Counted from the first letter of the stretch, positions 3,570 through 26,221 are shown. The stretch is 64,000 nt of DNA from an uncultured Flavobacteriales bacterium (GCA_963925495.1 CAWUST010000006.1:78247-142246), one strand, 5' to 3'. Notes: a model not told the origin generated them from the letters alone. Numbers and translations are program-made.

Positions 3570-6500
3570 TTATTTAACGATATTTATAATTTGTGGTTGG
3601 GCATCATTTTTTCCAACAACCAAGATTCTTTCATTGTCACCTATTTGTATGATATCCATTGCTTTAGAATCTCCATTTATATATAGTCCTGTTTTTATAT
3701 AGGGGCTTGAAATCCATTTATTCGCTTTGCCGTGTATTAATACTAAACCAATTGAAGCATCAGCTCGAGGAGTTTCTACTTCTGATGAAAATAAATTTCC
3801 TGTTAAAATTGCATCTTTTTCACCATCTTTATTCAAGTCAGTTAGTATAATTGAATTGACCATGGAAAACTGAGCTTCTTGAGGAAGGTTGGAAATCTTA
3901 AACTTTCCATTACCTAAATTTTCAATAAAAACAGACGAAAAATTAGTCGCTTTATAATTTAATGCCTTTTCTAATTTATCCCCATATACATCTTTAATAG
4001 TGGCAGCTGCAAAATCATTATAAGTAGGGAACTTCTCCTTAATAAACGGCATTTGGTCAGAACTGCATTGACGACCTCTTACAGGGTAACAAGCTCCTTG
4101 TTCGTAATAACCCAAAACAATGTCTAGTGTTCCATTATCGTCAAAATCATGACACCAGATCTGGAACGGGGCTTCTTTTGTCGTTTTGTATTTGTAATTC
4201 AAGCCTAGGTTTCCAACCATAAAATCGACATCTCCATCATTGTCCACATCTTCACAAGCTAAACCACTCCACCAGCCGATTTCTTTGGCGAGGTTATTTT
4301 CCTTTTGCCAAGTTAGTTTCCCGTTTTCATTTTTCATAAGCATAATAGGCATCCACTCTCCTACAACAATTAAATCCAAATCATTGTCGCCGTCATAGTC
4401 CACCCAACTGCTGTTAGTAACCATTCCTGGCTTTTTAAGTTCCGGAGCAACCTTTGATGTCACATCTTGGTATTTCCCATTTTCGTATTTCAAGAGATAG
4501 CTATTGGGCGCAAAAGGGTATGTGCCAGGAACTACTCTACCACCTAAAAATAAATCGAGATCACCATCATCGTCCATATCTCCGGCAGAAATGCTTTTAC
4601 CACTAGAATTTATATTCGGTAATACGCCTTTTGTTTTTTTGAATTTTCCTTTACCTAGGTTTTCATAAAGACGGTCGGCGTAAAATTGATTGTTGATTCT
4701 ATATTCATAACCTCCACTTACAACATATAAGTCGTTGTCGCCATCTCCATCGAAATCAAAAATAAGCGCTCCAATATCTTCGCTCATTCTATCTGCTATT
4801 AGAATTTCTGGAAATTGTTGAGTAAAAGTGCCTGATGAATTCTGAAAATAGATTACTCCTGCCTGTTCCAAAGCACCGCCAATATATAGGTCTTCCAATC
4901 CATCTCCATTTAAATCTCCTTTAGCCATTCCAGGGCCCATTTTGGAGTTACCATGTGGCAATAATGATTCTAATTCAAAGTCGTCAAATTCATTTTCCCT
5001 ATGTTTAAATTTAACACCTAAATTATTTTTGGTTTCGGCGAACAAGAAATTTTTAGAAATATCTTGTTTTACCGTTGGTTGTGCATTTTGCTGATTTATT
5101 TTGGCAATTACATTCACCGCTGATTCTGATTTGCTTTGGGTACCATTTAACCAAGTTACTTCAATTTGTACTTTTCCATCATATTTTCCAAGACCAAAAT
5201 GAAGTTTAGGTTCTACCGATGAAATGTAGCCTCGAGTAGGTTGAAATTGTTGAGTTTGAGTTCCTTCTGAAGTAGTTACCCTGACCATTGCTCCTGAGCA
5301 TTTTGCTTGAATTTCAGTAAGCTCCACATCTATATAATTATTGTTTAGCTGTTCTGCATTATTTTTATAAACCCATGCAAACTCTTCCATATTATTCATT
5401 ACAAGATCTAAATCTCCATCTCCGTCTAAATCTCCAAAAGCTGAACCCTGAGTAAAGCCTTTGTTATGAAGCCCCCATTCATATGTTTTCTTTGAAAAAG
5501 TATAATCACCGTTGTTTTTAAAGATATAGTTTGCTAAAGGCGTACTTGGAGTACTAGTAAAACGATCCATTTGCTCTGCATCGGTTAAATCGTCTAATTT
5601 GACATATTTTTTACTGATTCTTCTTGTAAAGTCATTATCTCTGTCATCGAGTCGGTATCCATTAGTAACCAACAAATCCTTAAATCCATCATTGTCAAAA
5701 TCTGCAAAAAGTGGTGTCCAACTCCAATCCGTACTTTGAATTCCAGCAATCTGAGCAATTTCTGAAAAGGTGCCATTTCCATTATTCAATTGAAAACTGT
5801 TATACATATATTGATGAGGCAAACCAAAACGCACAAGTTCATTGAAGAACAGAGGATTCATTCCACTCATTTGTGTTTTAGTTCTTATATGATCTTCCGC
5901 TGACATATCAAGGGCAAGAATATCTAGCAAACCATCATTATTAAAGTCAGCAATATCATTTCCCATACTATACAATGCAATATGATTAGTTCTCTTCTTT
6001 ATTTCTTCTTGAAATGTGCCATCTCCTTGGTTCATATACATAAAATCTGGCGAAGAATAGTCATTTGAAATATAGAGATCAATGTAGCCATTTTGGTCTA
6101 AGTCTCCAGCAGCAACACCTAATCCATATCCTCCAAAAATCTCTAATTTTAGTCCAACTTTATCTGTGATATTTTTGAATGTTCCATTTACATTTTCGTA
6201 AAAATGGTCTCCGCCTAGAGGGGCATTTTTATAATTATCTCTGTCCAATCTTTTTGTCGATGACCAAGAGTTTGGATGGTTAAGAACAAAAAGATCCAAG
6301 TCATCATCATTGTCAAAATCAATAAAAATACTTTGAGTTGTCCACCCGGTATCCGCAATTCCCATTTCTTCTGCTCTGTCTGTAAAGGTCAAATCGCCAT
6401 TATTAATTAGCATTACATTCTTTTTGTTTTCTGCGGTATTCATTCCACCCTTACTTACATATATGTCAATAAAACCATCGCCGTTTATATCTACTAGACA

Positions 6501-6887
6501 TACTCCGTTACTCCATTCCCCAGACATTTCAGTACCGGATTTTTTAGAAATATCCTCAAATTTAAAGTCCCCCTTGTTTAAGTACAATCTATTATCAACT
6601 TCATTTCCTGTGAAATAGATATCGTTCTTTCCATCATTATTAAAATCAGCAATTCCAACTCCACCACCATTGAACTGATATTGAAATTTGTAAAATTCAA
6701 TTTCTCTTTCCAGTGTAAAATCGTTTCTAAATGAAATACCAGTTTGTTCAGGTTTCAGTAACTCAAACAATTCTTTATTAACCGTTTCAGTTTTGACCTC
6801 AGCCTTTTTAATCGATTTTTTATTATCGTCACAAGAAGTCACTATTAGGAAAATTACTAATAGCGAAAGTAAACTTGCTTTTTTCAT
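3570..6887 (-). CDS. FG-GAP/VCBS-repeat lipoprotein with ASPIC/UnbV-like segment (CRTAC1-like)
   Basis: Many Ca-binding-type repeats (DINGDGFIDIY, DFNNDGLLDIL, DLDGDGDLDLV, FDFDGDGDNDLY, DVDNDGDVDF). Start moved to ATG 6887 (MKKASLLSLLVIFLIVTSC, lipobox Cys), which removes the overlap with the upstream regulator gene. Confidence 0.8.
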   Translation of the reverse strand: MKKASLLSLLVIFLIVTSCDDNKKSIKKAEVKTETVNKELFELLKPEQTGISFRNDFTLEREIEFYKFQYQFNGGGVGIADFNNDGKNDIYFTGNEVDNRLYLNKGDFKFEDISKKSGTEMSGEWSNGVCLVDINGDGFIDIYVSKGGMNTAENKKNVMLINNGDLTFTDRAEEMGIADTGWTTQSIFIDFDNDDDLDLFVLNHPNSWSSTKRLDRDNYKNAPLGGDHFYENVNGTFKNITDKVGLKLEIFGGYGLGVAAGDLDQNGYIDLYISNDYSSPDFMYMNQGDGTFQEEIKKRTNHIALYSMGNDIADFNNDGLLDILALDMSAEDHIRTKTQMSGMNPLFFNELVRFGLPHQYMYNSFQLNNGNGTFSEIAQIAGIQSTDWSWTPLFADFDNDGFKDLLVTNGYRLDDRDNDFTRRISKKYVKLDDLTDAEQMDRFTSTPSTPLANYIFKNNGDYTFSKKTYEWGLHNKGFTQGSAFGDLDGDGDLDLVMNNMEEFAWVYKNNAEQLNNNYIDVELTEIQAKCSGAMVRVTTSEGTQTQQFQPTRGYISSVEPKLHFGLGKYDGKVQIEVTWLNGTQSKSESAVNVIAKINQQNAQPTVKQDISKNFLFAETKNNLGVKFKHRENEFDDFELESLLPHGNSKMGPGMAKGDLNGDGLEDLYIGGALEQAGVIYFQNSSGTFTQQFPEILIADRMSEDIGALIFDFDGDGDNDLYVVSGGYEYRINNQFYADRLYENLGKGKFKKTKGVLPNINSSGKSISAGDMDDDGDLDLFLGGRVVPGTYPFAPNSYLLKYENGKYQDVTSKVAPELKKPGMVTNSSWVDYDGDNDLDLIVVGEWMPIMLMKNENGKLTWQKENNLAKEIGWWSGLACEDVDNDGDVDFMVGNLGLNYKYKTTKEAPFQIWCHDFDDNGTLDIVLGYYEQGACYPVRGRQCSSDQMPFIKEKFPTYNDFAAATIKDVYGDKLEKALNYKATNFSSVFIENLGNGKFKISNLPQEAQFSMVNSIILTDLNKDGEKDAILTGNLFSSEVETPRADASIGLVLIHGKANKWISSPYIKTGLYINGDSKAMDIIQIGDNERILVVGKNDAQPQIINIVK

Positions 6888-6894
6888 AATTCTG

Positions 6895-8061
6895 TTATTT
6901 TGGATTCGAGTATTTAATAATGTCATTTCCTTCGATTTTATCACTGCACAATATAATAAGTCTTTCAATAATATTTCTTAGTTCTCTAATATTTCCTGTC
7001 CAGTTTGTTTCTTCTAGTTTTTTCAATGCATCTTCACTAAGTGTTTTTTCTGGCATTCCCATTTCGCGACAAATTACCTTAACAAAATGATTGCTGAGTA
7101 ATTTTATATCTGTTTTTCTATCGTTAAGTGAAGGAACTTTAATCAATATTACACTTAGCCGATGAAACAAATCTTCTCTGAAATTTCCTTTTGCAATTTC
7201 TTCCAATAGATTTTTGTTGGTTGCTGCCAAAACTCGAACATCTACTTTAATGTCTTTTTCGCTTCCTACTCTTGATATTTTGTGTTCTTGTAGTGCTCTT
7301 AATACTTTTGCTTGAGCGGATAAACTCATATCACCTATTTCATCCAAAAATAAGGTGCCATTTTGAGCTTGTTCAAACTTGCCTTTTTTTGTCTTTATAG
7401 CGGATGTGAACGCCCCTTTTTCGTGTCCAAATAGCTCGCTTTCAATTAATTCAGAAGGAATTGCAGCGCAATTAACTTCGACAAACGGCAGCTTTTTACG
7501 ACGGCTTTTATTGTGTATTTCTCTTGCAACTAATTCTTTTCCAGAACCATTCGACCCGGTTATAAGTACCCGTGCTGAAGTGGGAGCGACTTTGGCTATC
7601 ATTTCGTGCACTTCTTTTATTGCGTTGCTTTCACCAATTATGCTTCCCCCTTTAAATGATTGTACCTTTTTGCGTAGGGTCTGTGTTTCTTTTACAAGTT
7701 TTTCTTTTTCAAGTCCGTTTCTTACAATTACTAAAAGTCGATTTAAATCTAAAGGTTTTGCCAAATAATCGTAGGCTCCTTTCTTAATGGCTTCTACTGC
7801 AGTTTCAATATTGCCATGTCCAGAAATCATAATTACATTTAAATCTGGTCTAGATTCAAATGCCATTTCTAAAAATTCTAATCCATCGAGTTTTGGCATT
7901 TTCACATCACAAAGTACTAAGTCGTAGTTGGTTTTACGAACCATAATTATGGCGGCCATACCGTCCTCTGCTTCTTCAATAATATGTCCTTCGTATTCTA
8001 GAACATCTTTCAAAGCGTTTCTTATGCTTTTTTCGTCGTCAATAACTAAGATTTTTGCCAT
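6895..8061 (-). CDS. Sigma-54-dependent response regulator (receiver + AAA+), lacking a C-terminal HTH
   Basis: Receiver domain with acceptor Asp in LVLCDVKMPKLDG. AAA+ sigma54-interaction domain with Walker A GSNGSGKE, GAFTSA loop and Walker B LFLDEIGD. The protein ends about 16 aa after the AAA+ domain. Confidence 0.85.
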   Translation of the reverse strand: MAKILVIDDEKSIRNALKDVLEYEGHIIEEAEDGMAAIIMVRKTNYDLVLCDVKMPKLDGLEFLEMAFESRPDLNVIMISGHGNIETAVEAIKKGAYDYLAKPLDLNRLLVIVRNGLEKEKLVKETQTLRKKVQSFKGGSIIGESNAIKEVHEMIAKVAPTSARVLITGSNGSGKELVAREIHNKSRRKKLPFVEVNCAAIPSELIESELFGHEKGAFTSAIKTKKGKFEQAQNGTLFLDEIGDMSLSAQAKVLRALQEHKISRVGSEKDIKVDVRVLAATNKNLLEEIAKGNFREDLFHRLSVILIKVPSLNDRKTDIKLLSNHFVKVICREMGMPEKTLSEDALKKLEETNWTGNIRELRNIIERLIILCSDKIEGNDIIKYSNPK

Positions 8062-8068
8062 AATTAAA

Positions 8069-9409
8069 TTAACCGTTATTGTACTTCAACCATTTCCAAA
8101 GTTCTTTGTAAGAAGTTTTGCCAGACATTAAAATACCAACACGGTAAATTTTTGCAGCAAACCAAACGGCCGCGAAGGAGCCTAATATTAATAGGCCCAT
8201 ACTTAATGCTACTTCCCAAATTGGAATGCCACCATCACCAACGCCAAGCGCTACCCTAACCAACATTATTATTGGTGAAGTAAGGGGGAATATGGACAAC
8301 CAAAATGCTATTGACCCTTCTGGGTTTTGGATAATTGTAGTTGCAAAAACGTAGGCCAGAATCAGAGGGGAGGTAATAGGGACCATAAATTGCTGGCTGT
8401 CCGTTTCGTTGTCAACTGCTGCTCCAACTGCAGCAAATAGAGCTCCGTAAAGAAAGTAACCACCTAAAAAGTAAAAGAAAAACAAGGCAATCATTACGGG
8501 CCAATTTGTACGGTTAATTATATTGTTCGGGTCTAACAATCCGGTTTTGTCTCCATTGCTTTGCGCTTGTAATTCTTGCGATATTTCTGGCGTTGTTTGT
8601 ATTTGTTCTGTAATTTGATCCGCTGAATAATAGGATTCTAAAATTGTAGCTTGAGCTATTCCAAAAATTCCTAAGGTTAGGATAATCCATAATGCAAATT
8701 GAGTCAGACTAACCAAACCAACACCAATTATTTTACCCATCATTAAATCAAAAGGACGAACAGAGGTAATTATTACTTCTACAATTTTGCTGGATTTTTC
8801 TTCAATTACTCCGCGCATTACTTGGACGCTGTACATGAATATGAATAAATAAATCAAAACTCCAAATCCAAGTCCAATTAAGGTTTTTCCCTTATCCAAA
8901 TTTTCTTCTTCGCCAGTTTCACTGTATTTTATAGCGTTTAAAGTAAAATTAGTTTTAACCGCCCTAAAATCGTCGGGGTCAATTTTGTACTGAAGAAGTT
9001 TTAATTCTTCAACCACACCTTCCACTTGATCTTCAATGCCCCTAATAACAGTTCCGCTAGGTTGTTTTTTGTAATACAACATAGCAATATTACCGGCTTC
9101 AATATTTTTAGGTATGTAAAGTATGCAGGTATAATCTGACTCATAAAACATTTCTTTGGATTGTTGTAAATCCATGTTATTGGCATAATTAAACTTTATG
9201 TTTTTAGTATCTTGAATATTGTTGAATGCTGGTGCTTTTTCGTCAATAATCAGTACCTTATGATTTACATCTTCAGTAATGCTCAACCAAATTACAGCAG
9301 CCAACCCTAGTCCAATAACAAGCGGCCCTAAAAGGGTAATTAGAATAAATGACTTCTTTTTTACACGAGTTAAATACTCTCTTTCTATTATTAGTGAAAT
9401 TTTACTCAT
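8069..9409 (-). CDS. ABC-2 family transporter permease (NatB-like)
   Basis: 446 aa. One N-terminal TM helix, a large soluble loop, then a cluster of C-terminal TM helices. ATGA 4-nt overlap with the ATPase gene. Confidence 0.75.
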   Translation of the reverse strand: MSKISLIIEREYLTRVKKKSFILITLLGPLVIGLGLAAVIWLSITEDVNHKVLIIDEKAPAFNNIQDTKNIKFNYANNMDLQQSKEMFYESDYTCILYIPKNIEAGNIAMLYYKKQPSGTVIRGIEDQVEGVVEELKLLQYKIDPDDFRAVKTNFTLNAIKYSETGEEENLDKGKTLIGLGFGVLIYLFIFMYSVQVMRGVIEEKSSKIVEVIITSVRPFDLMMGKIIGVGLVSLTQFALWIILTLGIFGIAQATILESYYSADQITEQIQTTPEISQELQAQSNGDKTGLLDPNNIINRTNWPVMIALFFFYFLGGYFLYGALFAAVGAAVDNETDSQQFMVPITSPLILAYVFATTIIQNPEGSIAFWLSIFPLTSPIIMLVRVALGVGDGGIPIWEVALSMGLLILGSFAAVWFAAKIYRVGILMSGKTSYKELWKWLKYNNG

Positions 9410-10356
9410 GATACCTCTTCCAATGTTTCGTTATTAATTTCATTTACCCTTTGAATAAACACATCGTTCATCGAAGGTATTTCTTCATGTAAGGCATGTA
9501 TTTCAACATGAGGAAGAAGTGCTTGTAATAAATCATTGGGAGTTTTATCATTCAGTAATCGAACTTTGGCAGTTTCAAAATTCCCTACTTTTTTCGATTC
9601 TATTAATTCAGCGTCAATCCAAAGTGCTTGAGAGAATTTTACTTTATCGCCTATAAACGAAACATTAAAAATATTTTCTTTTCTTGCTTCTTTTACTTCT
9701 TTCACACTTCCTTCAATAATTTTTCTCGATTTGTAGATTAAAGCAATGTCATCGCAAATTTCTTCAACTGATGACATATTGTGAGTAGATAAAATAATTG
9801 TTGCTCCATTTTCTTTCAATCTCATTATTTCGTCTCGAATAAGTGTGGCATTAATTGGATCAAAACCAGAAAAAGGTTCATCTAGAATTAAAAGCTCAGG
9901 CTCATGAAGTACAGTAACGATAAATTGCACTTTTTGCTGCATTCCTTTTGAAAGTTCCTCTATTTTTTTATCCCACCAATCAGTTATTTCAAATTTATCG
10001 AACCAAAATTTCAAGAGTTCCATTGCCCTTTTTTTAGAAAGGCCTTTAAGTCTTGCAAGGTAAAGGGCTTGTTCGCCCACTTTCATTTTTTTGTACAATC
10101 CTCGTTCTTCAGGAAGATAGCCAATGGTCGATTCGTGTGAAATATTTAGAGGAACCCCATGAAAGAGAATTCGGCCTTCATCAGGAGCTGTTATTTGATT
10201 AATTATACGAATTAAGCTCGTTTTTCCGGCTCCATTGGGCCCAAGTAATCCGAAAATCGTATTTTTTGGTATGTCAATGGAAATATTTTCCAAGGCTGTA
10301 TGCTTTGCATAGCGTTTTGTAACGCCTTGAATTGACAAAATTGTTTCTGGGTTCAT
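9406..10356 (-). CDS. ABC transporter ATP-binding protein (NatA-like)
   Basis: Walker A GPNGAGKTS, signature LSKGMQQK, Walker B LLILDEPFSGFD. Confidence 0.9.
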   Translation of the reverse strand: MNPETILSIQGVTKRYAKHTALENISIDIPKNTIFGLLGPNGAGKTSLIRIINQITAPDEGRILFHGVPLNISHESTIGYLPEERGLYKKMKVGEQALYLARLKGLSKKRAMELLKFWFDKFEITDWWDKKIEELSKGMQQKVQFIVTVLHEPELLILDEPFSGFDPINATLIRDEIMRLKENGATIILSTHNMSSVEEICDDIALIYKSRKIIEGSVKEVKEARKENIFNVSFIGDKVKFSQALWIDAELIESKKVGNFETAKVRLLNDKTPNDLLQALLPHVEIHALHEEIPSMNDVFIQRVNEINNETLEEVS

Positions 10357-17149: not shown

Positions 17150-17312
17150 AAAGTGCAAAGTAAAACCAACAAAGTAGAGTAAGTAAGTATGCCGTTAATA
17201 ATTTATAAAGAATAAATGTCTTTAGATGATTTTGCATAAATTTTTTTATTACGAATAGTTTGTTTACTTTTACATCGTAAATATTTACAGTAAATAAGTT
17301 AAAATTTGTATT

Positions 17313-17528
17313 ATGAGTGAAGAAATAAACGAAAACGAATTAGAGAATGTAAGTGGTGGTGCTGGAATGGGTATTCACCCTTCTTCAGGTGATGATGGTT
17401 CTCAACCTTTAATGGAAGGTGATGAAAACAGTAGCGAATTAAACCGACCTGACCATGGCCAGGACCAGGACGATCACCATGACCATGACGCAGATCAGCA
17501 GCATGGACTCCATGATCACGGTATATAG
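17313..17528 (+). CDS. Double-glycine-leader precursor peptide: 16-aa leader and 55-aa Cys-free His/Asp-rich core
   Basis: MSEEINENELENVSGG|AGMG... The leader has V(-4), L(-7), E(-8), I(-12), which fits GG-leader consensus positions. Same strand as a C39-peptidase ABC exporter and immediately upstream of it. Followed by its own terminator. Confidence 0.7.
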   Translation: MSEEINENELENVSGGAGMGIHPSSGDDGSQPLMEGDENSSELNRPDHGQDQDDHHDHDADQQHGLHDHGI

Positions 17529-17554
17529 ACATACAATCGTGTAATAGGTTATTT

Positions 17555-17586
17555 AAAAGGTTCCTTTTTGGAGCCTTTTTTTTTTG
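17555..17586 (+). terminator. Rho-independent terminator/attenuator after the precursor gene
   Basis: AAAAGGTTCC-ttttt-GGAGCCTTTT stem (one G-U wobble) followed by an 11-T run. Confidence 0.6.
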
Positions 17587-17742
17587 CTCTGATTTTTTAT
17601 TAATCAGTTTGAGTTGAAGTATTGATTTCTTGCAGTTTGTCGAAATTAAAATTACAGAATCTTTTTTTGTTGATTAGGCGGTTGTATTTGATAATATTAA
17701 AACTCTTAAAGAAAAAAAATTCTGCTAAGCCTTTTTTATTTT

Positions 17743-17750
17743 TATGTTTG
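17743..17750 (+). promoter_or_regulatory. Candidate Bacteroidota -7 box (TATGTTTG) for the transporter genes
   Basis: Exact match to the TAnnTTTG consensus, 50 nt upstream of the TolC-like ATG. No clear -33 TTG. Confidence 0.3.
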
Positions 17751-17758
17751 AAACAAAT

Positions 17759-17792
17759 GAGAATCAAATTCATAAATTAAAATTTGATTCTC
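17759..17792 (+). promoter_or_regulatory. Perfect 12-bp inverted repeat (operator or 5' RNA hairpin) abutting the TolC-like start codon
   Basis: GAGAATCAAATT-cataaattaa-AATTTGATTCTC. The right arm ends 7 nt before ATG 17800. Confidence 0.4.
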
Positions 17793-17799
17793 TATCTGT

Positions 17800-19410
17800 A
17801 TGAAGAAATGTTTTAATCTTTTTCTGCAATTTAGAATTGCATTTAGTGCTTTCTTGTTGATTTCTTCAATTATGAATCAATCGGCAAGTGCTCAAAACAT
17901 AGCTAACCTGGAAGTTGTTCTAAAAACAACTTTTGAGAAAAACCCCAACGTTCGTATTAGTTCCTTGAGTATAGACTTTCAGCAGGGCAGGATATTGCAG
18001 GCACAAGGACAATTCAATCCTAGTTTGAATTTTGGGATTAACAAAAGCTTTAATTTATCACCAACTACCAAAGCTCAGCGTGAAGGGTTACTTGGGTTTA
18101 GTCAAAATGAGTCGTTTAAAAGTGATCTTTTGGATTATGAATTATCTCTAACTAAAAGATTTCAGACTGGGACTCTAATAAAATCAAGTCTAGAGTTTAC
18201 CAATTTTGGGCGTAATGCTTTATATGATGACTTGTCAACAGCTGGTTTAGGTGAATTTATGACAAATAGAGGAAGATTGTTTTTTGATGTGACTCAACCT
18301 TTGCTGCAAGGAAGAGGAAAGAAATTCTATTCAGCTACTTTAGATGTAGAAAAACTCAGACTGAATCAAGCTCAATTGAACTATGCATTCGATGTAAGTA
18401 GCCAAACGTATTTGGTAATTCTGAATTACCTTAGCGTTGTTTCCGCTAGAAGAGAATTAGAAATTCAAATATCTATTGAAACAAATTATGCTGAATTTGA
18501 GGAACAACTGAGAATGTTGTCTGAAAAAGATGTAATACCAAAAGCTGAATTGACATTTATTAATGCGAATCTAGCTCGACAACATGTAACAGTTCTGAGC
18601 TCCAGATCATCTTATTTATCAGCTAAAAATCGGCTTTTAGAATCGATGGGCCTTCCAAGTTCTGATATTTCGAAATACGACTTTGAATCCATGCAATATG
18701 GCTTGGATTCTTTGCAGGAAGAAATTGAAGATGGGTATTTGGCTCATTGGTTGGAAAAGGCTTCGACTACTCGGAGAGATTATCTTGCCGCTCAGAAAAA
18801 CGTATCCATTAAAAAAAGAGAAATTGAGTATGCGGAAAATAAAAATCAGGCAAGATTAGATTTTACTGCAGGTGTTGGATATAATGGAATTTATGAGTCT
18901 AATTCTTTTGAGCAATACGTTTCGCCATTCTATTCAAATATTCCTGGTTTGAGTTACAGGGCAGGCTTGGTTTTTCAATGGTCAATGGGGATGATGTCAA
19001 CTAAAGGAGCATACGCCTCAGCATTGGCGGAAAAGCAAACATCTGAACAAACAGTTAAAAGTATAGAGCTGAACATTCAGCAACAGTTATCTTCTCAGTA
19101 TAACAATATTATTTACTATAACGAAGCTGTAAAACAAGGACAGCTTTCTGTGGATTTTAACTTAAAGGCACGTACAAATGAATATCTGAAATTGCAATTA
19201 GGGACTTCAGCTGTAGTGAACCTAGTTCAGGTGCAAAATAATTATGCAATCTCTCAAACATCACTGAATCGGTTGCAGTTTGCTTTAAACTCGTCAGTTA
19301 TCAGATTTAGATTTGAGTCAGGTAATTTGATAGAAATCTCGGAGTTAAACGAAGTAGTTGTAGATGTTGACGAATTATTCTCGTTACCTAAAATAAAAGT
19401 ATCAGAATGA
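17800..19410 (+). CDS. TolC-family outer-membrane efflux protein
   Basis: Signal peptide ending SASA|Q. 536 aa with two repeated halves of long helical, coiled-coil-rich sequence typical of the OEP family. Heads the exporter operon. Confidence 0.8.
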   Translation: MKKCFNLFLQFRIAFSAFLLISSIMNQSASAQNIANLEVVLKTTFEKNPNVRISSLSIDFQQGRILQAQGQFNPSLNFGINKSFNLSPTTKAQREGLLGFSQNESFKSDLLDYELSLTKRFQTGTLIKSSLEFTNFGRNALYDDLSTAGLGEFMTNRGRLFFDVTQPLLQGRGKKFYSATLDVEKLRLNQAQLNYAFDVSSQTYLVILNYLSVVSARRELEIQISIETNYAEFEEQLRMLSEKDVIPKAELTFINANLARQHVTVLSSRSSYLSAKNRLLESMGLPSSDISKYDFESMQYGLDSLQEEIEDGYLAHWLEKASTTRRDYLAAQKNVSIKKREIEYAENKNQARLDFTAGVGYNGIYESNSFEQYVSPFYSNIPGLSYRAGLVFQWSMGMMSTKGAYASALAEKQTSEQTVKSIELNIQQQLSSQYNNIIYYNEAVKQGQLSVDFNLKARTNEYLKLQLGTSAVVNLVQVQNNYAISQTSLNRLQFALNSSVIRFRFESGNLIEISELNEVVVDVDELFSLPKIKVSE

Positions 19411-20645
19411 AAGATAACTTATTTCGAAAAGATGCAATTGACAAATTGCAATCGCCTGACAGGCTGAATGAAATGGTTCGAATAATTTCACCAAACAATT
19501 GGATTGCTGTACTGTCTATTGCAGTATTGTTTGTTTTTATTGTAATCTGGAGTGTGCTAGGTCGGCTACCAATTAATGTTCAAGGAAATGGAATCCTTCT
19601 CAAATCGGGTGGGGTTATGGAGGTTCCTGCAATAGCAAACGGTCAGGTTTCAGAACTAATAATTAAGCCAGGAATGATAGTTCAAAAAGGGGAGATATTG
19701 GCAAAAGTTGCTCAACCAGAGCTGCAGCTAAAAATTGAACACATGGAACAGCAGTTGTTTCATTTAAAAAGTAAATACAAGACAATAAAAGGATTTGATG
19801 AACGTGATCTTGAATTAAAAAAAGAGCTGTTAAAAAAGAATGCGGAAAATAAAATGAAACGAATAGAGAAAAATATTGAACGTATTTCGTTTGTTGAAAC
19901 GCAAATTAAAGCAAGAGAAGAACTGTTGGATAAGGGTTTGATTACAACAGAAACTTTGAATCAAACTAAAATAATGAAGTTTGAGTTGGAACAACAAAAT
20001 TTGGTCCTTGCAAATGAATTGGAGGAGTTGCAACTGTCAATTTTTGAAATGTCTAAAGAAATTGAAATTGAACTAAATAATTTGGACGGACAAATAATTG
20101 CTTTAGAAGGAGAATTAGGTGAATTGCAAGCTCGTTATCAACTTAATTCTGAAATCAAGAGTCCTTATACTGGAAAGGTAGTTGAACTAATGGTTAATGC
20201 AGGAAGTATTGTTTCTCCGGGAAGCTTTCTTTTAAGTATGGAGCGAGATGATCTTAATGAGGAAATAGAAGCTATCGTTTACGTAAGCCCTCGTGAAGGA
20301 AAGAAAGTAAAAGTTGGCATGGATGTTAATATATCTCCCTCAACTGTTGAAGTTGAAAAGTTTGGCTATATCAAAGGAAAGGTTATTCAGGTTTCTGATT
20401 ATCCTGCCACATTTGAAGGAATGTTGAATACACTTCAGAATAAACAATTGGTAGAATCCTTCTTTAATGGAATGCCTCCTATTGCAGTTCGTGTAGGTTT
20501 AAAAACCAGTAGTAATATTTCTGGCTATGAATGGACATCGGGAGAAGGTCCAGATGTAGAAATTAAGTCTGGAACATTGTGTAATTCAAAAATAGTTGTT
20601 CAGAATAAGCGTCCTATAAGTCTAGTCTTACCTGTTGTTGATTAG
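19407..20645 (+). CDS. HlyD-family periplasmic adaptor (NHLM-bacteriocin-system secretion protein type)
   Basis: N-terminal LFRKDAIDKLQSPDRL plus one TM helix, lipoyl-like hairpin, long coiled coil, C-terminal beta-barrel. ATGA overlap with the TolC-like gene. Confidence 0.85.
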   Translation: MKDNLFRKDAIDKLQSPDRLNEMVRIISPNNWIAVLSIAVLFVFIVIWSVLGRLPINVQGNGILLKSGGVMEVPAIANGQVSELIIKPGMIVQKGEILAKVAQPELQLKIEHMEQQLFHLKSKYKTIKGFDERDLELKKELLKKNAENKMKRIEKNIERISFVETQIKAREELLDKGLITTETLNQTKIMKFELEQQNLVLANELEELQLSIFEMSKEIEIELNNLDGQIIALEGELGELQARYQLNSEIKSPYTGKVVELMVNAGSIVSPGSFLLSMERDDLNEEIEAIVYVSPREGKKVKVGMDVNISPSTVEVEKFGYIKGKVIQVSDYPATFEGMLNTLQNKQLVESFFNGMPPIAVRVGLKTSSNISGYEWTSGEGPDVEIKSGTLCNSKIVVQNKRPISLVLPVVD

Positions 20646-20654
20646 CATATTGCC

Positions 20655-22859
20655 ATGACGAATAAGCCATCAAAAGAAGAAAAGTTAATTTGGAATTCAT
20701 CCAAACCTAGGACGAAGACTGCTTCCGTTATACAACTTGAAGCCGTTGAGTGCGGAGCAGCAAGTCTGAAAATGGTGCTAGCTTACTTTGGTAGGTTCCA
20801 AACACTGGAAAAGTTAAGAGAAGATGCAGGAGTAAATCGTGATGGAAGTAAGGCAATCAATATTTTAAAAGCTGCCAGAAAACATGGAATGGAATGCAAG
20901 GGACTTAAAGTTGATGACTTAAGTGATCTCCTCGATATGAATTTTCCATTAATAATTCACTGGAATTTCAATCACTTTGTGGTTTTAGAAGGAATAAAAA
21001 ATGGTCGGTTTCACCTTAATGACCCTGCTATCGGTCACAGATCATTATCTTTTGATGAATTCAATGGGGCTTTTACCGGGATTGCATTAGAGTTTAAAAA
21101 AGGCCCTGACTTTGAGAAATCAGGAATTGAAGGGGGTTTAATTAGCGGATTAAAACTTCGCCTAAAAGGATACGAGAATACAATCACATACTTGTTCACG
21201 GTAGGATTGTTATTGGTTATTCCTGGATTAGTAATTCCGATTTTTTCGCGAGTATTTGTTGATGAAATATTGATAGGAAAAGCAGACGATTGGTTATGGC
21301 CTTTGGTAGCAGGAATGCTCTTGACTGCTGCTTTACGGGCAGTTTTACAACATTTAAAGCTTAGCGTATTATTAAAGGCTAAAAATAAACTCGAAGTAGT
21401 TACTTCGGCGCAATATTTCTGGCATTTACTTAAACTGCCTATCCAGTTCTTCCACCAACGAAACAAAGGTGAAATGGCTAGTAGAGTTGGGATAAATCGT
21501 AAAATAGCGGCTTTGATTACAGGTCAATTAGCAAAAAATTTATTGGATCTTGTTGTCATCGTTTTTTACTTTATTCTAATGCTTCAATATGATGTTCTGC
21601 TTTCAGTCATTACGATTGTTTTTGCAGCATTAAATATCGCAGCCTTAAAGTTGATAGGCCATGTAAGAATTGAAAAGTATTTCAGCTTGTCTGTTTCTTC
21701 TGGTAAATTATACGGAACAACTTTAGGAGGGATAAAGTCAATCGAAACCCTCAAAGCTATGGGTCGAGAAAATGATTTCTTCGTAAAGTGGAGCGGAAAT
21801 TTTACCAAAGTTTTTAATCAAACAATTGATCTTCGTTTATTCGAGATAAAATTTGGTTTGTTGCCAAGATCACTTAGTATTTTACAAGGCTCAATCATTC
21901 TGACCATTGGTGCTTGGAAAATAATGAATGGTGAAATAACAGTAGGTATGCTGGTTGCTTTTCAAAGCCTCGTGGTGAGCTTCTCTGGGCCTATTCAGAG
22001 TTTATTGAGACTCGGAAGTACCCTGCAGAAAATGGAAGGGGACATGAATCGTATTGATGATGTTATGCGCTCAGAGCCCGATCCTCAAGTTAAACGTTCG
22101 GTTCAGATTACAGAGGAGAATCTTGATGTTGTGTCCAAAAAATTAGAAGGGTATGTTGAGTTTAAAAATTTGACTTTTGGTTATAGTAAAGTCGCGCCAC
22201 CGTTAATTGAAAATTTCTCATTAAAAGTAAATCCCGGTGAACGTATAGCATTAGTAGGAGGTTCAGGAAGCGGAAAATCGACACTTGCCAAACTTATGAT
22301 TGGATTTTATGAGCCTTGGGAAGGTGAGATATTATTTGATGGCAAACCTCGAGCTCAAATTCCTAGACAGGTTATAAATAATTCTATGTCAATGGTTTCG
22401 CAGGATGTGTTTTTGTTCGAAGGCCCAGTTAGGGATGTCGTAAACTTATGGGATAGAAGTATAACTGATCAACAACTAATAAATGCATGTAAAGATGCCG
22501 CTATTCATGACATCATTAGTACAAAAACTGGTGGATATGATTTTATGGTTGGCGAGGGTGGTAAAAATTTTAGTGGAGGTCAACGTCAGCGCATAGAAAT
22601 CGCAAGGTCTTTAGTGAACAACCCATCGATACTTATTCTTGATGAAGCTACAAGCGCATTAGACCCTACTACAGAACTTGAAATCGACACTAACATAAAA
22701 AAGAGAAAGTGTACAGTAGTAGTTGTTGCTCATCGACTTAGTACTATTAGAGATAGCGATGAAATCATTGTACTGGACCAAGGGAGAATAGTGGAAAGAG
22801 GAACTCACGAAGAGTTACTTAAAATGCAAGGGAAATATTCACATTTAATTAAAACTTAG
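20655..22859 (+). CDS. Peptidase-C39-containing ABC transporter (PCAT; leader-cleaving exporter)
   Basis: C39 triad candidates: Cys33 (QLEAVECGAAS), His (NHFVVLEG), Asp (LNDPA). Six-TM exporter domain. Walker A GGSGSGKST, signature FSGGQRQR, Walker B ILILDEATSALD. Confidence 0.9.
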   Translation: MTNKPSKEEKLIWNSSKPRTKTASVIQLEAVECGAASLKMVLAYFGRFQTLEKLREDAGVNRDGSKAINILKAARKHGMECKGLKVDDLSDLLDMNFPLIIHWNFNHFVVLEGIKNGRFHLNDPAIGHRSLSFDEFNGAFTGIALEFKKGPDFEKSGIEGGLISGLKLRLKGYENTITYLFTVGLLLVIPGLVIPIFSRVFVDEILIGKADDWLWPLVAGMLLTAALRAVLQHLKLSVLLKAKNKLEVVTSAQYFWHLLKLPIQFFHQRNKGEMASRVGINRKIAALITGQLAKNLLDLVVIVFYFILMLQYDVLLSVITIVFAALNIAALKLIGHVRIEKYFSLSVSSGKLYGTTLGGIKSIETLKAMGRENDFFVKWSGNFTKVFNQTIDLRLFEIKFGLLPRSLSILQGSIILTIGAWKIMNGEITVGMLVAFQSLVVSFSGPIQSLLRLGSTLQKMEGDMNRIDDVMRSEPDPQVKRSVQITEENLDVVSKKLEGYVEFKNLTFGYSKVAPPLIENFSLKVNPGERIALVGGSGSGKSTLAKLMIGFYEPWEGEILFDGKPRAQIPRQVINNSMSMVSQDVFLFEGPVRDVVNLWDRSITDQQLINACKDAAIHDIISTKTGGYDFMVGEGGKNFSGGQRQRIEIARSLVNNPSILILDEATSALDPTTELEIDTNIKKRKCTVVVVAHRLSTIRDSDEIIVLDQGRIVERGTHEELLKMQGKYSHLIKT

Positions 22860-22863
22860 AAGT

Positions 22864-25767
22864 TTGGATAATCAATCCTTAATAAAAGAACTCAAGCGAA
22901 GAGGTCAAGAAAGAATTCAATCAGTGATTGACCCTTTTCTTTCTGTTGACCCTTCAAAAGTTCACTTTGTACTCCAAGGTTCTGTCAATCTTTCTACATC
23001 AAAAGTTGTTGAAGAAGACGCCTATGGTCGATTAGATAACTTCATACAAATTCCCGAAGGTGAGTTGATATTCGGCACTGCGATAGATTACGATAATAAC
23101 TTATCTTTTTTAGTGGATGTGGAGATTGAGTCTACTTTTATAGATATTGATATTCAATATATTAGAGAGCTTGCAAATTCAGTAGAATTTGGCCCAACGA
23201 TTATTACTCTTATCGAAACCTGGATTAATCGACTCTATGCAGGTGTTGCTGATGATACAAGCGTCAATATCCCTATTATTCATGATTTCTTAAGTTTTAA
23301 TACTTCCTATTGTGATCCTGAAAATTCAGTCGCTGGGAACAGGGAATTGACTTGGGTATTGTTTCATGAAATTGGAGAATGTAAATTTAATAGGCACCTA
23401 GAAGTAAATATAGATAATGTGATTTTCCCAGTTGGGACACGTTCATATTTGGTTTTTGAAGGTGGAGTGAAATTGACAACCCATCGAACCGCTGATATTA
23501 TTTCTAGAGATGAAATGTGGAATGGACTTTTAGAGTTAGGTCAAGTTGTCTTTAGAAGTGACGCACATGAAATTTTATTCAGAGAGGCTCAAGAAACAAG
23601 TAGACTAATTGAAAAGTATCAATTAGAATCCGACGATTTTTCCGAATCTTTAAAATCCTTTTCTCAAGTTTTTCAGAAAGATAAAGGACTACAAGTAGAT
23701 TTTGATTCTCATGATGACCTGTTTAACGCAGTTTCAATGGTCATGAAGTATGAAGAGATTAAAGTGTCTTTTCCAAAAGGGTTTTCTCAAAATGAAGATT
23801 TTTTATCTGAAATATGTCGCTATAACGGTATTCGTTATCGTGAAATTCTCTTGGAGCCAAATTGGTTTGAGAGAAATACAGAAGATGCATTTTTAGCCTT
23901 CATAAACAATGGGCAAGAGGATCCCCTTGCAGTTATTCCTCATAAAGGAAAATTGTCATTTGTTAATACCAAAACCCAAGAAATAGTAGAAGTAGACAAG
24001 GATAATGTGGGGTTGTTTAAACAAGAGGCCTATGTTTTTTATAGACCATTTCCTGCAGATCGACCAATTAAAATAAAGGACATTGTTGTGTTCACACTTG
24101 AAAAGAACAAAAAAGATTTAATCCGAGTCTTTGTCATGGGGTTTATTAGTAGCTTATTTATGCTATTGTTTCCAATCTTAACGGCTCAAATTTTTGATTT
24201 TGTTATTCCAAGCGCAGATAAAGGGCAATTGTTAAACATTGCCTTCGCATTAATTGCTATTTCCTTTGGAACGATTGGATTTGAGTTGGTGAAACAATTT
24301 GCTTTAATGCGCGCTGAGAACAGATTAGATTATAAGGCTCAATCTGCACTTTGGGATCGCTTGCTAAACCTTCCAAGTGATTTCTTTTCAAATTATAGCA
24401 CAGGAGACATGGCTTCAAGGTCCATGGGAATTAATCAAATGAAATCTATTATTTCGGGTGCAGCGATTACATCAGTCCTAGCTTTAGCTTTTTCAATTTT
24501 AAATTTAGGCCTTTTACTATACTATAGTGCCTCACTGGCAGGCTTAGCGATTGCATTTAGTCTAGTCCAAATTACGATTATAAGCTTATTTGCTCGACTT
24601 CAATTGAAGTTGCAGGCGAAGCTTATGAAAGAAGGTGGGAAATTGGAAGGTGTTGCTTTTCAAGTTCTAAATGGAATTTCACAATTTAGAGCGAGTGGTT
24701 CGGAGTCTAGAGCGTTCCTGTTCTGGTTTAAGGCTTTTATGAAAGCAAAGACAACGGCGATTGGACTGGCCAAGTTGCAAAATGCACAAGCAATACTTAA
24801 TTCCGTATTAGGTATTTTATCAAGCGTGTTTCTTTTTGTGATTGTTAAAACAACAACTAATGATTTAACAACTGGACAGTTTTTTGCTTTTCTTGCTGCT
24901 TACGGGGCATTTGTAGGTGCTATTATTGGATTAAGCTCTTCTCTTGTTCAAATCCTCAAACTTCCTGTTATTTACGATAGGCTAAGACCAATTTTAGAGA
25001 CGCTTCCGGAATGCGAAACATTGAAGGAAGCACCTACAAAATTCACAGGTTCTATCGAAATGAACAATATCAATTTTAGATATAAGGATGGTGCCCCATT
25101 GATTATAAAAGATTTAAGTATCTCAATAAAGAGCGGCGAGTATATTGCATTAGTAGGGCCATCTGGTTCAGGAAAATCTACACTTATACGGTTATTACTT
25201 GGATTTAATAAGTCTGAAGCAGGCTCTATTTATTTTGACAAGCAGGACATGGAAAATTACGATCCGAAAATGCTGCGTCGTCAAATGGGCGTAGTGCTTC
25301 AAGATGGTGATTTAATGTCTGGAGATATCTACACAAACATTGTTGGTTCATCTACTCAATTAACTAGAAATGACGCATGGGCAGCAGCGAGAGCAGCGGC
25401 ATTTGATAAAGACATTTTAAATATGCCAATGGGAATGCATACTATCGTTAATGAAGATGGTGGTACTCTTTCTGGTGGGCAAAAACAACGATTAATGATT
25501 GCGCGTGCTTTGGTGCATAATCCTAAGATATTAATTTTTGATGAAGCTACTAGTGCATTGGATAATGAAACACAGGCTATAGTTACTGCAAGTTTGGATA
25601 ATCTTAATGTAACAAGAATCGTTATTGCACACAGATTGTCTACAATTATTAATGCTGATAAAATTTACTATTTGGAAGGTGGTGAGTTAATTGAAAGTGG
25701 CTCTTTTGATGAATTAATGGAAATAAAGGGTCAATTCCATAAGCTAGCTGAACGTCAAATTGAGTAA
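22864..25767 (+). CDS. Second ABC exporter (TMD+NBD) with a ~415-aa non-peptidase N-terminal domain
   Basis: TTG start 4 nt after the PCAT stop, with no in-frame ATG for more than 200 codons. TM domain begins near aa 420. Walker A GPSGSGKST, signature LSGGQKQR, Walker B ILIFDEATSALD. Confidence 0.85.
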   Translation: MDNQSLIKELKRRGQERIQSVIDPFLSVDPSKVHFVLQGSVNLSTSKVVEEDAYGRLDNFIQIPEGELIFGTAIDYDNNLSFLVDVEIESTFIDIDIQYIRELANSVEFGPTIITLIETWINRLYAGVADDTSVNIPIIHDFLSFNTSYCDPENSVAGNRELTWVLFHEIGECKFNRHLEVNIDNVIFPVGTRSYLVFEGGVKLTTHRTADIISRDEMWNGLLELGQVVFRSDAHEILFREAQETSRLIEKYQLESDDFSESLKSFSQVFQKDKGLQVDFDSHDDLFNAVSMVMKYEEIKVSFPKGFSQNEDFLSEICRYNGIRYREILLEPNWFERNTEDAFLAFINNGQEDPLAVIPHKGKLSFVNTKTQEIVEVDKDNVGLFKQEAYVFYRPFPADRPIKIKDIVVFTLEKNKKDLIRVFVMGFISSLFMLLFPILTAQIFDFVIPSADKGQLLNIAFALIAISFGTIGFELVKQFALMRAENRLDYKAQSALWDRLLNLPSDFFSNYSTGDMASRSMGINQMKSIISGAAITSVLALAFSILNLGLLLYYSASLAGLAIAFSLVQITIISLFARLQLKLQAKLMKEGGKLEGVAFQVLNGISQFRASGSESRAFLFWFKAFMKAKTTAIGLAKLQNAQAILNSVLGILSSVFLFVIVKTTTNDLTTGQFFAFLAAYGAFVGAIIGLSSSLVQILKLPVIYDRLRPILETLPECETLKEAPTKFTGSIEMNNINFRYKDGAPLIIKDLSISIKSGEYIALVGPSGSGKSTLIRLLLGFNKSEAGSIYFDKQDMENYDPKMLRRQMGVVLQDGDLMSGDIYTNIVGSSTQLTRNDAWAAARAAAFDKDILNMPMGMHTIVNEDGGTLSGGQKQRLMIARALVHNPKILIFDEATSALDNETQAIVTASLDNLNVTRIVIAHRLSTIINADKIYYLEGGELIESGSFDELMEIKGQFHKLAERQIE

Positions 25768-26156
25768 CAGTGATTCTAACCTCTGAACGTTGAAAAAAAT
25801 GATGTTTATTTTAACTTTTAACTTAAAGAACAATTTCTGACATCGCAATCTTGATTTCTAATTCAACAAATCAGTGTTTTTTGCGCTTCATAACTGGTTG
25901 AAAACCTGATTTTTCGTCCAACTATTCGTAGGTTTTAAAGTTGATTGAAATAATTCCATTTTCATTTCTACAGAATGATATTTATTTCATAATACATAGT
26001 TGATAATCATAACTAGTGTATCTTGCTTGGTCAAAAAACTTGAGGTGTATTTTTATGTAATTACCAGAAAATCAGTTTTTTCTCCTAAAAAATCATGGTT
26101 AATTTTTTTGATGGAAAATAGTTTCTAAAGGGGTTATTTTAAAGGGATAAAAAACT

Positions 26157-26164
26157 TACATTTG
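26157..26164 (+). promoter_or_regulatory. Candidate -7 box (TACATTTG) of the rpsL operon promoter
   Basis: Exact TAnnTTTG match 58 nt upstream of the rpsL ATG. The -33 element is weak. Confidence 0.3.
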
Positions 26165-26221
26165 CCGGCTCTAAAAAAGAATGGGTAAATATTGCCCGAA
26201 TAATATAATATTTAGAACTAT

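Follow-up and report, generated by a model that had tools for sequence, protein, structure and literature searches.

The Locus and the Closest Described Systems

Among the systems described so far, those closest to the locus analyzed here are the NHLM/NHLP cassette (Haft et al. 2010, PMC2887384), the exporters associated with LanM clusters, the class II microcin secretion apparatus and the HetC transporter of Nostoc PCC 7120. Our locus occupies positions 17313 to 25767 of a stretch of 64,000 nucleotides from an uncultured Flavobacteriales bacterium (GCA_963925495.1, CAWUST010000006.1:78247-142246), hereafter called the window and numbered from its first nucleotide. It consists of a small precursor gene with a double-glycine (GG) leader, followed by the genes of a TolC-family outer-membrane channel (OMP), a HlyD-type periplasmic adaptor, a peptidase-containing ABC exporter (PCAT) and a second ABC exporter (ABC2). 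The export machine is of a known kind, each of its genes having already received a name, and its cargo belongs to an uncharacterised and unusually fast-evolving class. We favour, with moderate confidence, the interpretation of this locus as an NHLM-type type I secretion unit, located on the chromosome and serving a single ribosomal peptide, which would be exported unmodified and possibly in a ligand-gated way. This explanation is ranked first, and four others, i.e., a microcin-like toxin, a strain signal, a remotely tailored peptide and a minor cargo, are kept as rivals.

With the NHLM/NHLP cassette (PMC2887384), the window shares three adjacent and co-directional proteins that score above the equivalog cut-offs. 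It differs from it by a 16-residue leader, a Cys-free core, the presence of a TolC gene in the operon, and the lack of a nearby cyclodehydratase or LanM among the window genes scanned (20 non-ribosomal proteins, the scan leaving out the rest of the ribosomal-protein stretch, at about 33.4-43.9 kb). Cyanobacterial clusters may combine a HlyD protein, an ABC protein devoid of peptidase and a short PCAT, and over half of their precursors belong to neither the NHLP nor the Nif11 type (PMC3140520). Class II microcin secretion, as known for microcin V (CvaA/CvaB/TolC, PMC12219008), resembles the window by its short GG leader, its C39-ABC exporter, its membrane fusion protein and TolC, and also by an unmodified anionic product, which in our case is a prediction. 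The window differs from it by a second ABC protein with sensor-like domains, a more hydrophilic cargo, a TolC gene located in the operon and the absence of an adjacent immunity gene.

Related loci found in public sequences are designated below by L numbers. Two of them, L015 (GCA_028280845.1) and L016, present the same OMP-HlyD-PCAT-ABC2 gene order, with a dedicated TolC-family gene and an ABC2 of 970-990 aa, inside clusters that also carry LanM, JmjC/cupin, acetyltransferase and luciferase-like genes and, in L015, NHLP-type Cys-rich precursors; the window locus has none of these. Hence, the clusters that produce ribosomally synthesized and modified peptides (RiPPs) are already known to use an exporter module provided with its own TolC. 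A first reading made from the sequence alone (hereafter the sequence-only reading) had singled out the cassette as being completed by its own TolC; the gene is indeed in the operon, but this is not a special trait, as the same module occurs in LanM clusters. Judging from these comparisons, the window lineage would carry a RiPP-cluster export module stripped of its tailoring genes. The prochlorosin precursors of marine cyanobacteria also combine, as in the window locus, a conserved leader and a hypervariable core in an abundant marine lineage. However, their cores are rich in Cys, Ser and Thr and are served by one LanM, with many copies per genome, whereas the window lineage has one or two copies and no Cys.

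A Complete NHLM-Type Export Machine

The five open reading frames (ORFs) are all on the + strand and co-directional. The precursor ORF (71 aa, 17313-17528) encodes the GG leader and a 55-aa core and ends with its stop codon; it is followed by the genes of the OMP (536 aa, 17800-19410), the HlyD-type adaptor of the NHLM subtype (412 aa, 19407-20645), the PCAT (734 aa, 20655-22859) and ABC2 (967 aa, 22864-25767). A 4-nt ATGA overlap joins the OMP and HlyD genes, and the next two gaps measure 9 nt (HlyD-PCAT) and 4 nt (PCAT-ABC2). These genes, coordinates, overlap and gaps, recomputed by us, are those of the sequence-only reading, and the same five genes were predicted by independent gene callers in public contigs encoding an identical PCAT.

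The family assignment was established with NCBIfam models. HlyD reaches 340.8 bits on TIGR03794 (residues 13-410, cut-off 156.2), the PCAT 997 bits on TIGR03796 (cut-off 853.3) and ABC2 800.2 bits on TIGR03797 (residues 284-966, cut-off 709.4). The scores of these three proteins on all other efflux, lipid, drug or RTX-type families are far smaller and do not reach the respective cut-offs; no unrelated efflux family thus matches better than the NHLM equivalogs. The OMP matches the Pfam OEP model in two stretches (64.8 bits) and obtains 38.5 bits on TIGR01844, against a cut-off of 225: it belongs to the OEP/TolC family and stands far from the TolC subfamily model. On the strength of these models, HlyD, PCAT and ABC2 are bona fide members of TIGR03794, TIGR03796 and TIGR03797, with a predicted translational coupling to a TolC-family channel, and both the NHLM-type trio and the TolC-family protein proposed initially are thus recovered.

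The C39 protease domain of the PCAT (20724-21104, +; Pfam Peptidase_C39, 115.6 bits) contains the catalytic residue Cys33, encoded at 20751-20753 (+). Gln27, Cys33, His107 and Asp123 align with the solved LahT150, ComA and PCAT1 proteases. The protease site (Gln/Cys/His/Asp) is therefore intact, in agreement with what had been claimed of its Cys33/His/Asp context. The closest solved relative is LahT150 (PDB 6mpz, 144 bits, PMC6363468), the double-glycine protease domain of a lanthipeptide PCAT, whose catalytic motifs are identical; unlike the window C39, LahT serves a lanthipeptide cluster of a Gram-positive bacterium. At full length, the PCAT matches PCAT1 and ComA. The export mechanism can be presumed from membership in these well-studied families: the C39 domain would cut the precursor after Gly16, and the 55-residue product (AGMGIHPSS...) would pass through the PCAT and ABC2 assembly, then through HlyD and TolC, to reach the outside as a linear, unmodified, intrinsically disordered anionic peptide.

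Public annotation pipelines already name the two ABC proteins as NHLM/NHLP export subunits. As they recognise the export machine, the machine itself adds nothing new, and the unusual character first attributed to the whole locus, whose peptide also bears the name of bacteriocin in public records, holds for the cargo.

The Precursor Gene and Its Leader

The leader (MSEEINENELENVSGG; 17313..17360, +) precedes a predicted cut after Gly16, and the core (17361..17528, +, stop codon included) is the predicted exported product, of 55 aa, AGMGIHPSS...DHHDHDADQQHGLHDHGI. The small ORF passes the 15-residue GG model TIGR01847 (17.1 bits against a cut-off of 15.7), which is its sole NCBIfam match. The same search gave neither an NHLP (TIGR03793) nor a Nif11 (TIGR03798) leader, these being traits of the usual cargo and not of the transporter models. 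In the NHLM/NHLP study, a motif made of acidic residues, Leu, Val and GG was described as the transporter-proximal end of the NHLP/N11P leaders, and the leader was found to correlate most strongly with the transporter (Haft et al. 2010, PMC2887384). The 16-residue leader of the window fits this motif, and everything upstream of the motif is missing.

A search of the 71-aa peptide against 5.8 billion proteins returned only four close relatives. Relatives were looked for by synteny instead, because a similarity restricted to the leader is unable to attain significance. In all the orthologous loci that reach this far (L001-L004, L007, L009, L011/L012 and L013), with OMPs 98% to 57% identical to that of the window, the ORF lies in frame at the same position, and the length differences among relatives are in-frame indels. 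The leader consensus, MSEE[ILV]NENELE[NG]VSGG, is nearly invariant across these loci: the leader shows 0 synonymous and 1 non-synonymous change between the window and L007, and no non-synonymous change in the L169/L011 pair (non-synonymous divergence, dN, of 0). In the core, changes affect 11.5 of 32.7 synonymous sites and 14.5 of 129.3 non-synonymous sites between the window and L007 (ratio of dN to the synonymous divergence dS of 0.25, Fisher p = 0.003).

An antisense ORF at 17311-17532 (73 aa) was also considered and is not a gene: it is interrupted by stops in L002, L004, L007, L009, L011 and L013, where the + frame is open. Directly 3' of the precursor gene, an intrinsic-terminator-like hairpin with a T-run (17555..17586, +) constitutes the best terminator-like site of the region, and all precursor copies of five lineages are followed, at this same place, by a hairpin with T-run, the stem sequences being different. 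Because the frame is kept, the antisense frame broken, the core enriched in synonymous changes and each copy followed by a terminator, comparison among loci shows the 71-aa ORF to be a real gene with its own putative terminator. The small ORF is thus neither absent nor out of frame in the orthologous loci, as the comparison of synteny called for by the sequence-only reading has made clear. L013, whose OMP is 57% identical, contains two tandem precursor copies (L013:34-246 and L013:545-766), whose cores differ by an indel and which have each their own terminator hairpin.

The window, L007, L011 and L013 have kept in common a block, TTATGTTTGA, that fits the Bacteroidota -7 consensus TAnnTTTG. 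It gives a candidate -7 element (TATGTTTG; 17743..17750, +) about 50 nt upstream of the OMP gene. As TAnnTTTG occurs in the window no more often than expected (69 found vs 92 expected), the copy at 17743 is only a candidate promoter element. Matches to sigma-70-type promoters are no commoner than chance (26 found vs 32 expected), and the promoter scans identified no promoter for the precursor gene. The terminator after the precursor and the conserved TTATGTTTGA block before the OMP gene suggest two transcription units, i.e., the precursor and a four-gene transporter operon. The 64-kb window contains no other credible GG-leader ORF, three further regular-expression matches falling inside larger genes.

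A Hydrophilic and Rapidly Evolving Core

The window core has an isoelectric point (pI) of 4.4 and a grand average of hydropathy (GRAVY) of -1.6; it contains 8 His, 14 Asp+Glu and few Ser/Thr, with no Cys and no aromatic residue. The cores of the different lineages cannot be aligned: the window core is acidic and His-rich, that of L009 is of mixed Glu/Arg composition, that of L011 is basic and rich in Pro, Gly and Ala, and that of L013 is acidic and rich in Asp and Gly. What they have in common is their composition, since they are Cys-free, with 0-3 aromatic residues, a GRAVY of -1.1 to -2.0 and a length of 45-57 residues; over the whole family, the GRAVY extends from -0.4 to -2.0 and the length over about 40-57 residues. 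Cys is absent from all seven cores of five lineages, as well as from those of L018 and L019, two more distant loci described below.

In two independent strain pairs, the core DNA diverges 7-13 times faster than the flanking genes and also faster than intergenic DNA. Between the window and L007, the core shows a dS of 0.475, a dN of 0.121 and three indels, whereas the neighbouring proteins are 97-100% identical (dS 0.023-0.060, dN at most 0.011). Between L169 and L011, the core DNA diverges by 17%, against 1.3% for the helicase gene, 2.2% for the OMP gene and 5-7% for intergenic DNA, and dN (0.215) exceeds dS (0.135) in the core. The peptide varies even among contigs with an identical 734-aa PCAT. 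In the His-rich lineage (15 alleles), variation is confined to three hot spots, residues 21/24/25, residues 49-53 (GQDQD, GQDQG or DHGHD) and residues 67-68 (HD, EN or HN), which appear in mosaic combinations. The His/Asp block DHHDHDADQQHGL is invariant in 15/15 alleles while adjacent positions vary; as it never varies, the core is not unconstrained.

The hot spot may be due to diversifying selection, to old alleles maintained by balancing selection with recombination, or to a slippage-prone site, three possibilities that the sequence data fit alike. Concerning a diversity-generating retroelement, no reverse-transcriptase domain appears in the Pfam matches of the scanned window genes, with no further test. 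This hypervariability would speak for a role in inter-strain interactions. Many contigs of the Tara Oceans data carry sequences of the locus, which identifies its uncultured host as a marine Flavobacteriales bacterium of high abundance. In this abundant Tara Oceans population, the core is a sharp local divergence hot spot that could mark strain-level interaction or trace-metal ecology. In P0004, a public variant of the peptide, the C-terminal third is frameshifted (...RPDHDHDHGNHIDRKSGRMVMNDNRIAF) although the total length is 72 aa, which may reflect either an error of sequencing or a genuine frameshift allele. In another group, the Vicingaceae-like cores of L121 and L018 (L018:4659-4856) share IDPTxPVEDxGPxG, and some lineages therefore keep core sequence conservation.

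Sensor-Like Domains in the Second ABC Exporter

The first 283 residues or so of ABC2 have no Pfam or PDB sequence match. An AlphaFold2 model of residues 1-410 (predicted local distance difference test score, pLDDT, 86.3) contains at its N-terminus tandem beta-barrel domains resembling cyclic-nucleotide-binding (CNB) domains (aa 14-212; 22903..23499, +), followed by a long helix (aa 216-270; 23509-23673, +). With Foldseek, this model matched, at a probability of 1.0 and E-values between 7e-7 and 3e-5, PKA-R and PKG through their tandem CNB domains, and PrfA, Vfr, NtcA and CLP, all of the CRP family, through their effector domains. The N-terminal extension is conserved in 45 representative proteins, most of them of about 970 aa, and an extension of comparable size precedes the ABC2 core in other phyla. 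This sensor-like domain on ABC2 was previously unremarked.

Next comes a position that is C39-like in the model (aa 284-400; 23713..24063, +), where the TIGR03797 coverage starts (residue 284) and where the model has an alpha/beta region, which would correspond to a degenerate peptidase. The transmembrane and nucleotide-binding domains complete the protein (24073..25767, +; Pfam ABC_membrane 81.5 bits, ABC_tran 113.7 bits). A model of the whole of ABC2 (pLDDT 81.5) aligns over about 700 columns with HlyB (8dck_A) and PCAT1 (6v9z), i.e., the full length of both including their N-terminal domain, in a whole-protein alignment that is not a domain-level superposition. By sequence, the C39-like region shows no similarity to the C39 domain of the PCAT itself (BLAST), ABC2 has no Peptidase_C39 match (Pfam), and the window protein has AV where the family consensus has AC. 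The description of ABC2 as peptidase-less in the sequence-only reading agrees with the lack of a Peptidase_C39 match but has to be nuanced, as the structure aligns with HlyB and PCAT1, N-terminal domain included.

The HetC protein of Nostoc PCC 7120 is a PCAT with an N-terminal cNMP-type domain that binds ppGpp and is required in vivo (PMC10986499). In both systems, an ABC protein of peptide export has a CNB-type domain ahead of its C39 or C39-like domain, on the N-terminal side. That of HetC is single and carried by the protease-active subunit, whereas the domains of the window are in tandem, undetectable by sequence and carried by the protease-inactive partner. Because the CNB-like fold parallels HetC, we regard ABC2 as the partner devoid of protease activity and endowed with sensor-like domains, and the locus may carry a regulator inside its transporter. 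PCAT and ABC2 might form either a heterodimer or two homodimers, and a small ligand, held by the tandem CNB-like domains, may gate export and so replace the missing regulator gene. The absence of a regulator, as first reported, is correct for genes adjoining the locus and overlooks this tandem fold. ABC2 belongs to a family (TIGR03797) that was never characterised, and its CNB-like domains offer a hypothesis for the presence of two ABC proteins per cassette, one that cuts and one that senses. In L016, a separate 186-aa protein with a Pfam cNMP_binding match (L016:20232-20792) is encoded just downstream of the LanM-associated exporter, a second link of this exporter family to cyclic-nucleotide-type sensing.

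Tailoring-Free Modules in Other Bacteroidota

No LanM, YcaO, radical-SAM or integrase domain was found among the 20 window proteins scanned, nor in the precomputed Pfam matches of their neighbours, and what had been observed by eye for these genes is confirmed at this scale. The OMP orthologues that are 42-97% identical form a small clade, one member of which is named Salibacteraceae; beyond it, identity falls to about 25%. The PCAT family extends over many phyla, with very different precursors nearby. Two loci outside the close clade, in a Vicingaceae (L018) and in a Sphingobacterium metagenome-assembled genome (L019), possess the complete module and one short-leader peptide, ...NVTGG|AGFPQDVEPAPEGHEPQEDIDPTAPVEDHGPNGPRRDGKR and ...KVAGG|AAGASKMPDASETDHAVLNDIAERDSHVIDDGGIKHAADGTEMI, respectively. 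Both cores are acidic, Cys-free and contain His. Their flanks, without tailoring genes, encode dnaE, thioredoxin, DUF58, DUF3332 and bestrophin in L018, and an MFS transporter and Reg_prop in L019. Hence, the tailoring-free module with hydrophilic cargo is recurrent, and not a chance feature of a single genome; in several Bacteroidota families, NHLM cassettes without tailoring genes go together with GG-leader peptides that are highly hydrophilic and devoid of Cys.

A PCAT scan of the genome collection showed that the close clade is not among its species representatives. The best match there, L017 (67%), starts inside the OMP gene, so that its precursor is lost. A scan of metagenomes for the leader pattern showed that the motif is common to GG peptides of many phyla and gave at least two extra alleles (L169 and L121). 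Other loci carry HlyD and PCAT only (L020:5143-5535 in Microscillaceae, L023:5973-6341 in Cytophagaceae), with NHLP-type long-leader precursors whose cores are almost pure Arg and Gly (for example AGRRRRRRRRGPHIGRRRGGKGPRCRKRRFR). Among the matches listed, at least nine metagenome contigs (L101, L106, L110, L125, L138, L178, L199, L207 and L208) encode short-GG-leader proteins of 83-87 aa with, by eye, a LysM-like tail (...GDVLSGIAIRFGVTV-QI--WN-I-N-N-I--GQKLTIYP), in which case PCAT export would also extend to cargo that is folded and binds the cell wall. On a Tara contig (L105:~1850-2070), the core of a GG-leader peptide contains AHELTHVQQ, an HExxH-like metalloprotease motif.

Weighing the Explanations for the Exported Peptide

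Our preferred explanation is the dedicated export of one unmodified peptide. As the cargo contains no Cys and no tailoring gene was found in the scanned window or in the L018 and L019 flanks, an unmodified or minimally modified peptide is the simplest reading, which supports what the initial analysis had proposed for an acidic peptide. The family keeps a very hydrophilic, Cys-free tail while its sequence turns over rapidly. The extreme hydrophilicity of this cargo, the lack of a linked immunity gene and the vertically fixed position among housekeeping genes argue against a membrane-active bacteriocin. In the window lineage, the His/Asp block DHHDHDADQQHGL might, as a tentative proposal that we hold doubtful, bind a divalent metal ion outside the cell; a likeness to the His/Asp-rich loops found in zinc-handling proteins (e.g., ZnuA) may be presumed. 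A broader reading is rather unlikely when taken as a whole: in marine Flavobacteriales and at least two other Bacteroidota families, a ligand-gated unit would solely release a disordered, fast-diversifying, unmodified anionic peptide, which in the window lineage would be a metal binder. If true, it would define a functional class of double-glycine peptides that are neither bacteriocins nor pheromones.

Several observations weigh against one or another part of this explanation. Related exporters adjoin JmjC/cupin hydroxylases and acetyltransferases, enzymes that need no Cys, and tailoring enzymes could lie outside the 64-kb window. Against gating, PF00027 (cNMP_binding) has no match in the ABC2 N-terminus even at E = 10. 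Moreover, His-richness is limited to one lineage, the sister lineages having 0-3 His and one core being basic (pI 10.8), so that metal binding cannot be a family-wide function, and the locus contains no uptake receptor for a metal-peptide complex.

The rival that survives best, itself quite improbable, is a class II microcin-like toxin directed against related strains, in which the core would be engaged in an arms race and immunity would be encoded elsewhere or be intrinsic. The public names of the peptide go in this direction ('MAG: bacteriocin [Flavobacteriales bacterium]', MGY8951766.1, at NCBI; 'bacteriocin-like protein' at IMG), as do the assembly of short GG leader, PCAT, membrane fusion protein and TolC found in microcin V systems (PMC12219008) and the hypervariable core, where dN exceeds dS in one pair and divergence exceeds that of intergenic DNA in both. 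However, the precursor has no conserved neighbour encoding a small membrane protein (the spacer that separates it from the OMP gene is reduced to 144 nt in L013 and contains no conserved ORF), the core is extremely hydrophilic, without aromatics or long hydrophobic stretches, and the locus is not a mobile island.

The same polymorphism is what a secreted strain-specific signal would call for, a pheromone or kin-recognition peptide whose cores would be pherotypes read by a receptor encoded elsewhere; we give this possibility a lower rank and little probability. A conserved leader goes with a polymorphic core whose mosaic alleles recombine the three hot spots, the core dS between the window and L007 exceeds the dS of the flanks about tenfold, in keeping with old alleles under balancing selection, no immunity gene was found at the locus, and streptococcal GG pheromones are reported to be exported by PCATs (PMC7595303). 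On the other hand, neither a sensor kinase nor a receptor is encoded beside the locus, cores of 40-57 residues are long for a pheromone, and it is the composition of the core, not its sequence, that is conserved across families.

More doubtful still is a RiPP precursor modified by Asp/His/Asn hydroxylases or acetyltransferases encoded elsewhere in the genome. Distant relatives of the exporter do lie in clusters with LanM, JmjC/cupin proteins and acetyltransferases, and precursors can be unlinked from their enzymes (Haft et al. 2010, PMC2887384), but the 16-residue leader lacks the long NHLP/Nif11 part of enzyme-linked precursors, the core offers no Cys and few Ser/Thr for ring formation, and the module occurs without neighbouring enzymes in three Bacteroidota families. 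Finally, the small ORF is least probably a minor or incidental substrate of an exporter mainly serving other GG-leader proteins elsewhere in the genome, as NHLM cassettes that serve many dispersed precursors (PMC2887384) and same-motif leaders on very diverse metagenome cargo (e.g., LysM-domain proteins by eye, among the matches listed) might suggest, since the precursor is retained beside the exporter in every lineage examined, is duplicated in L013 and is the only GG-leader ORF of the 64-kb window.

The Genomic Neighbourhood

The locus is flanked by a UvrD/PcrA-type helicase gene on one side and by rpsL-rpsG-fusA on the other, the two boundaries already recognised from the sequence alone. 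Its helicase-rpsL position is common to the relatives, which makes it a vertically fixed housekeeping neighbourhood. The GC content is flat across the locus (0.32-0.38) and thus gives no sign of recent insertion. No Rfam family was found anywhere in the window. The ABC2-rpsL spacer (25768-26221) measures 454 nt, vs 272-288 nt in L009, L011 and L013; it contains a TAnnTTTG motif at 26157-26164 and no credible ORF.

About 9 kb upstream, a sigma-54-dependent response regulator (6895-8061, -) belongs to conserved housekeeping synteny and does not adjoin the locus. It adjoins an ABC-2 transporter pair (8069-10356), an arrangement kept in L007, L009 and L011, and no histidine kinase was seen near it. 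Further upstream, the window encodes two very large secreted-type proteins (174-3452, -, and 3570-6968, -), of which one is a beta-helix protein bearing at its C-terminus a type IX secretion sorting domain, and the other an FG-GAP/ASPIC repeat protein.

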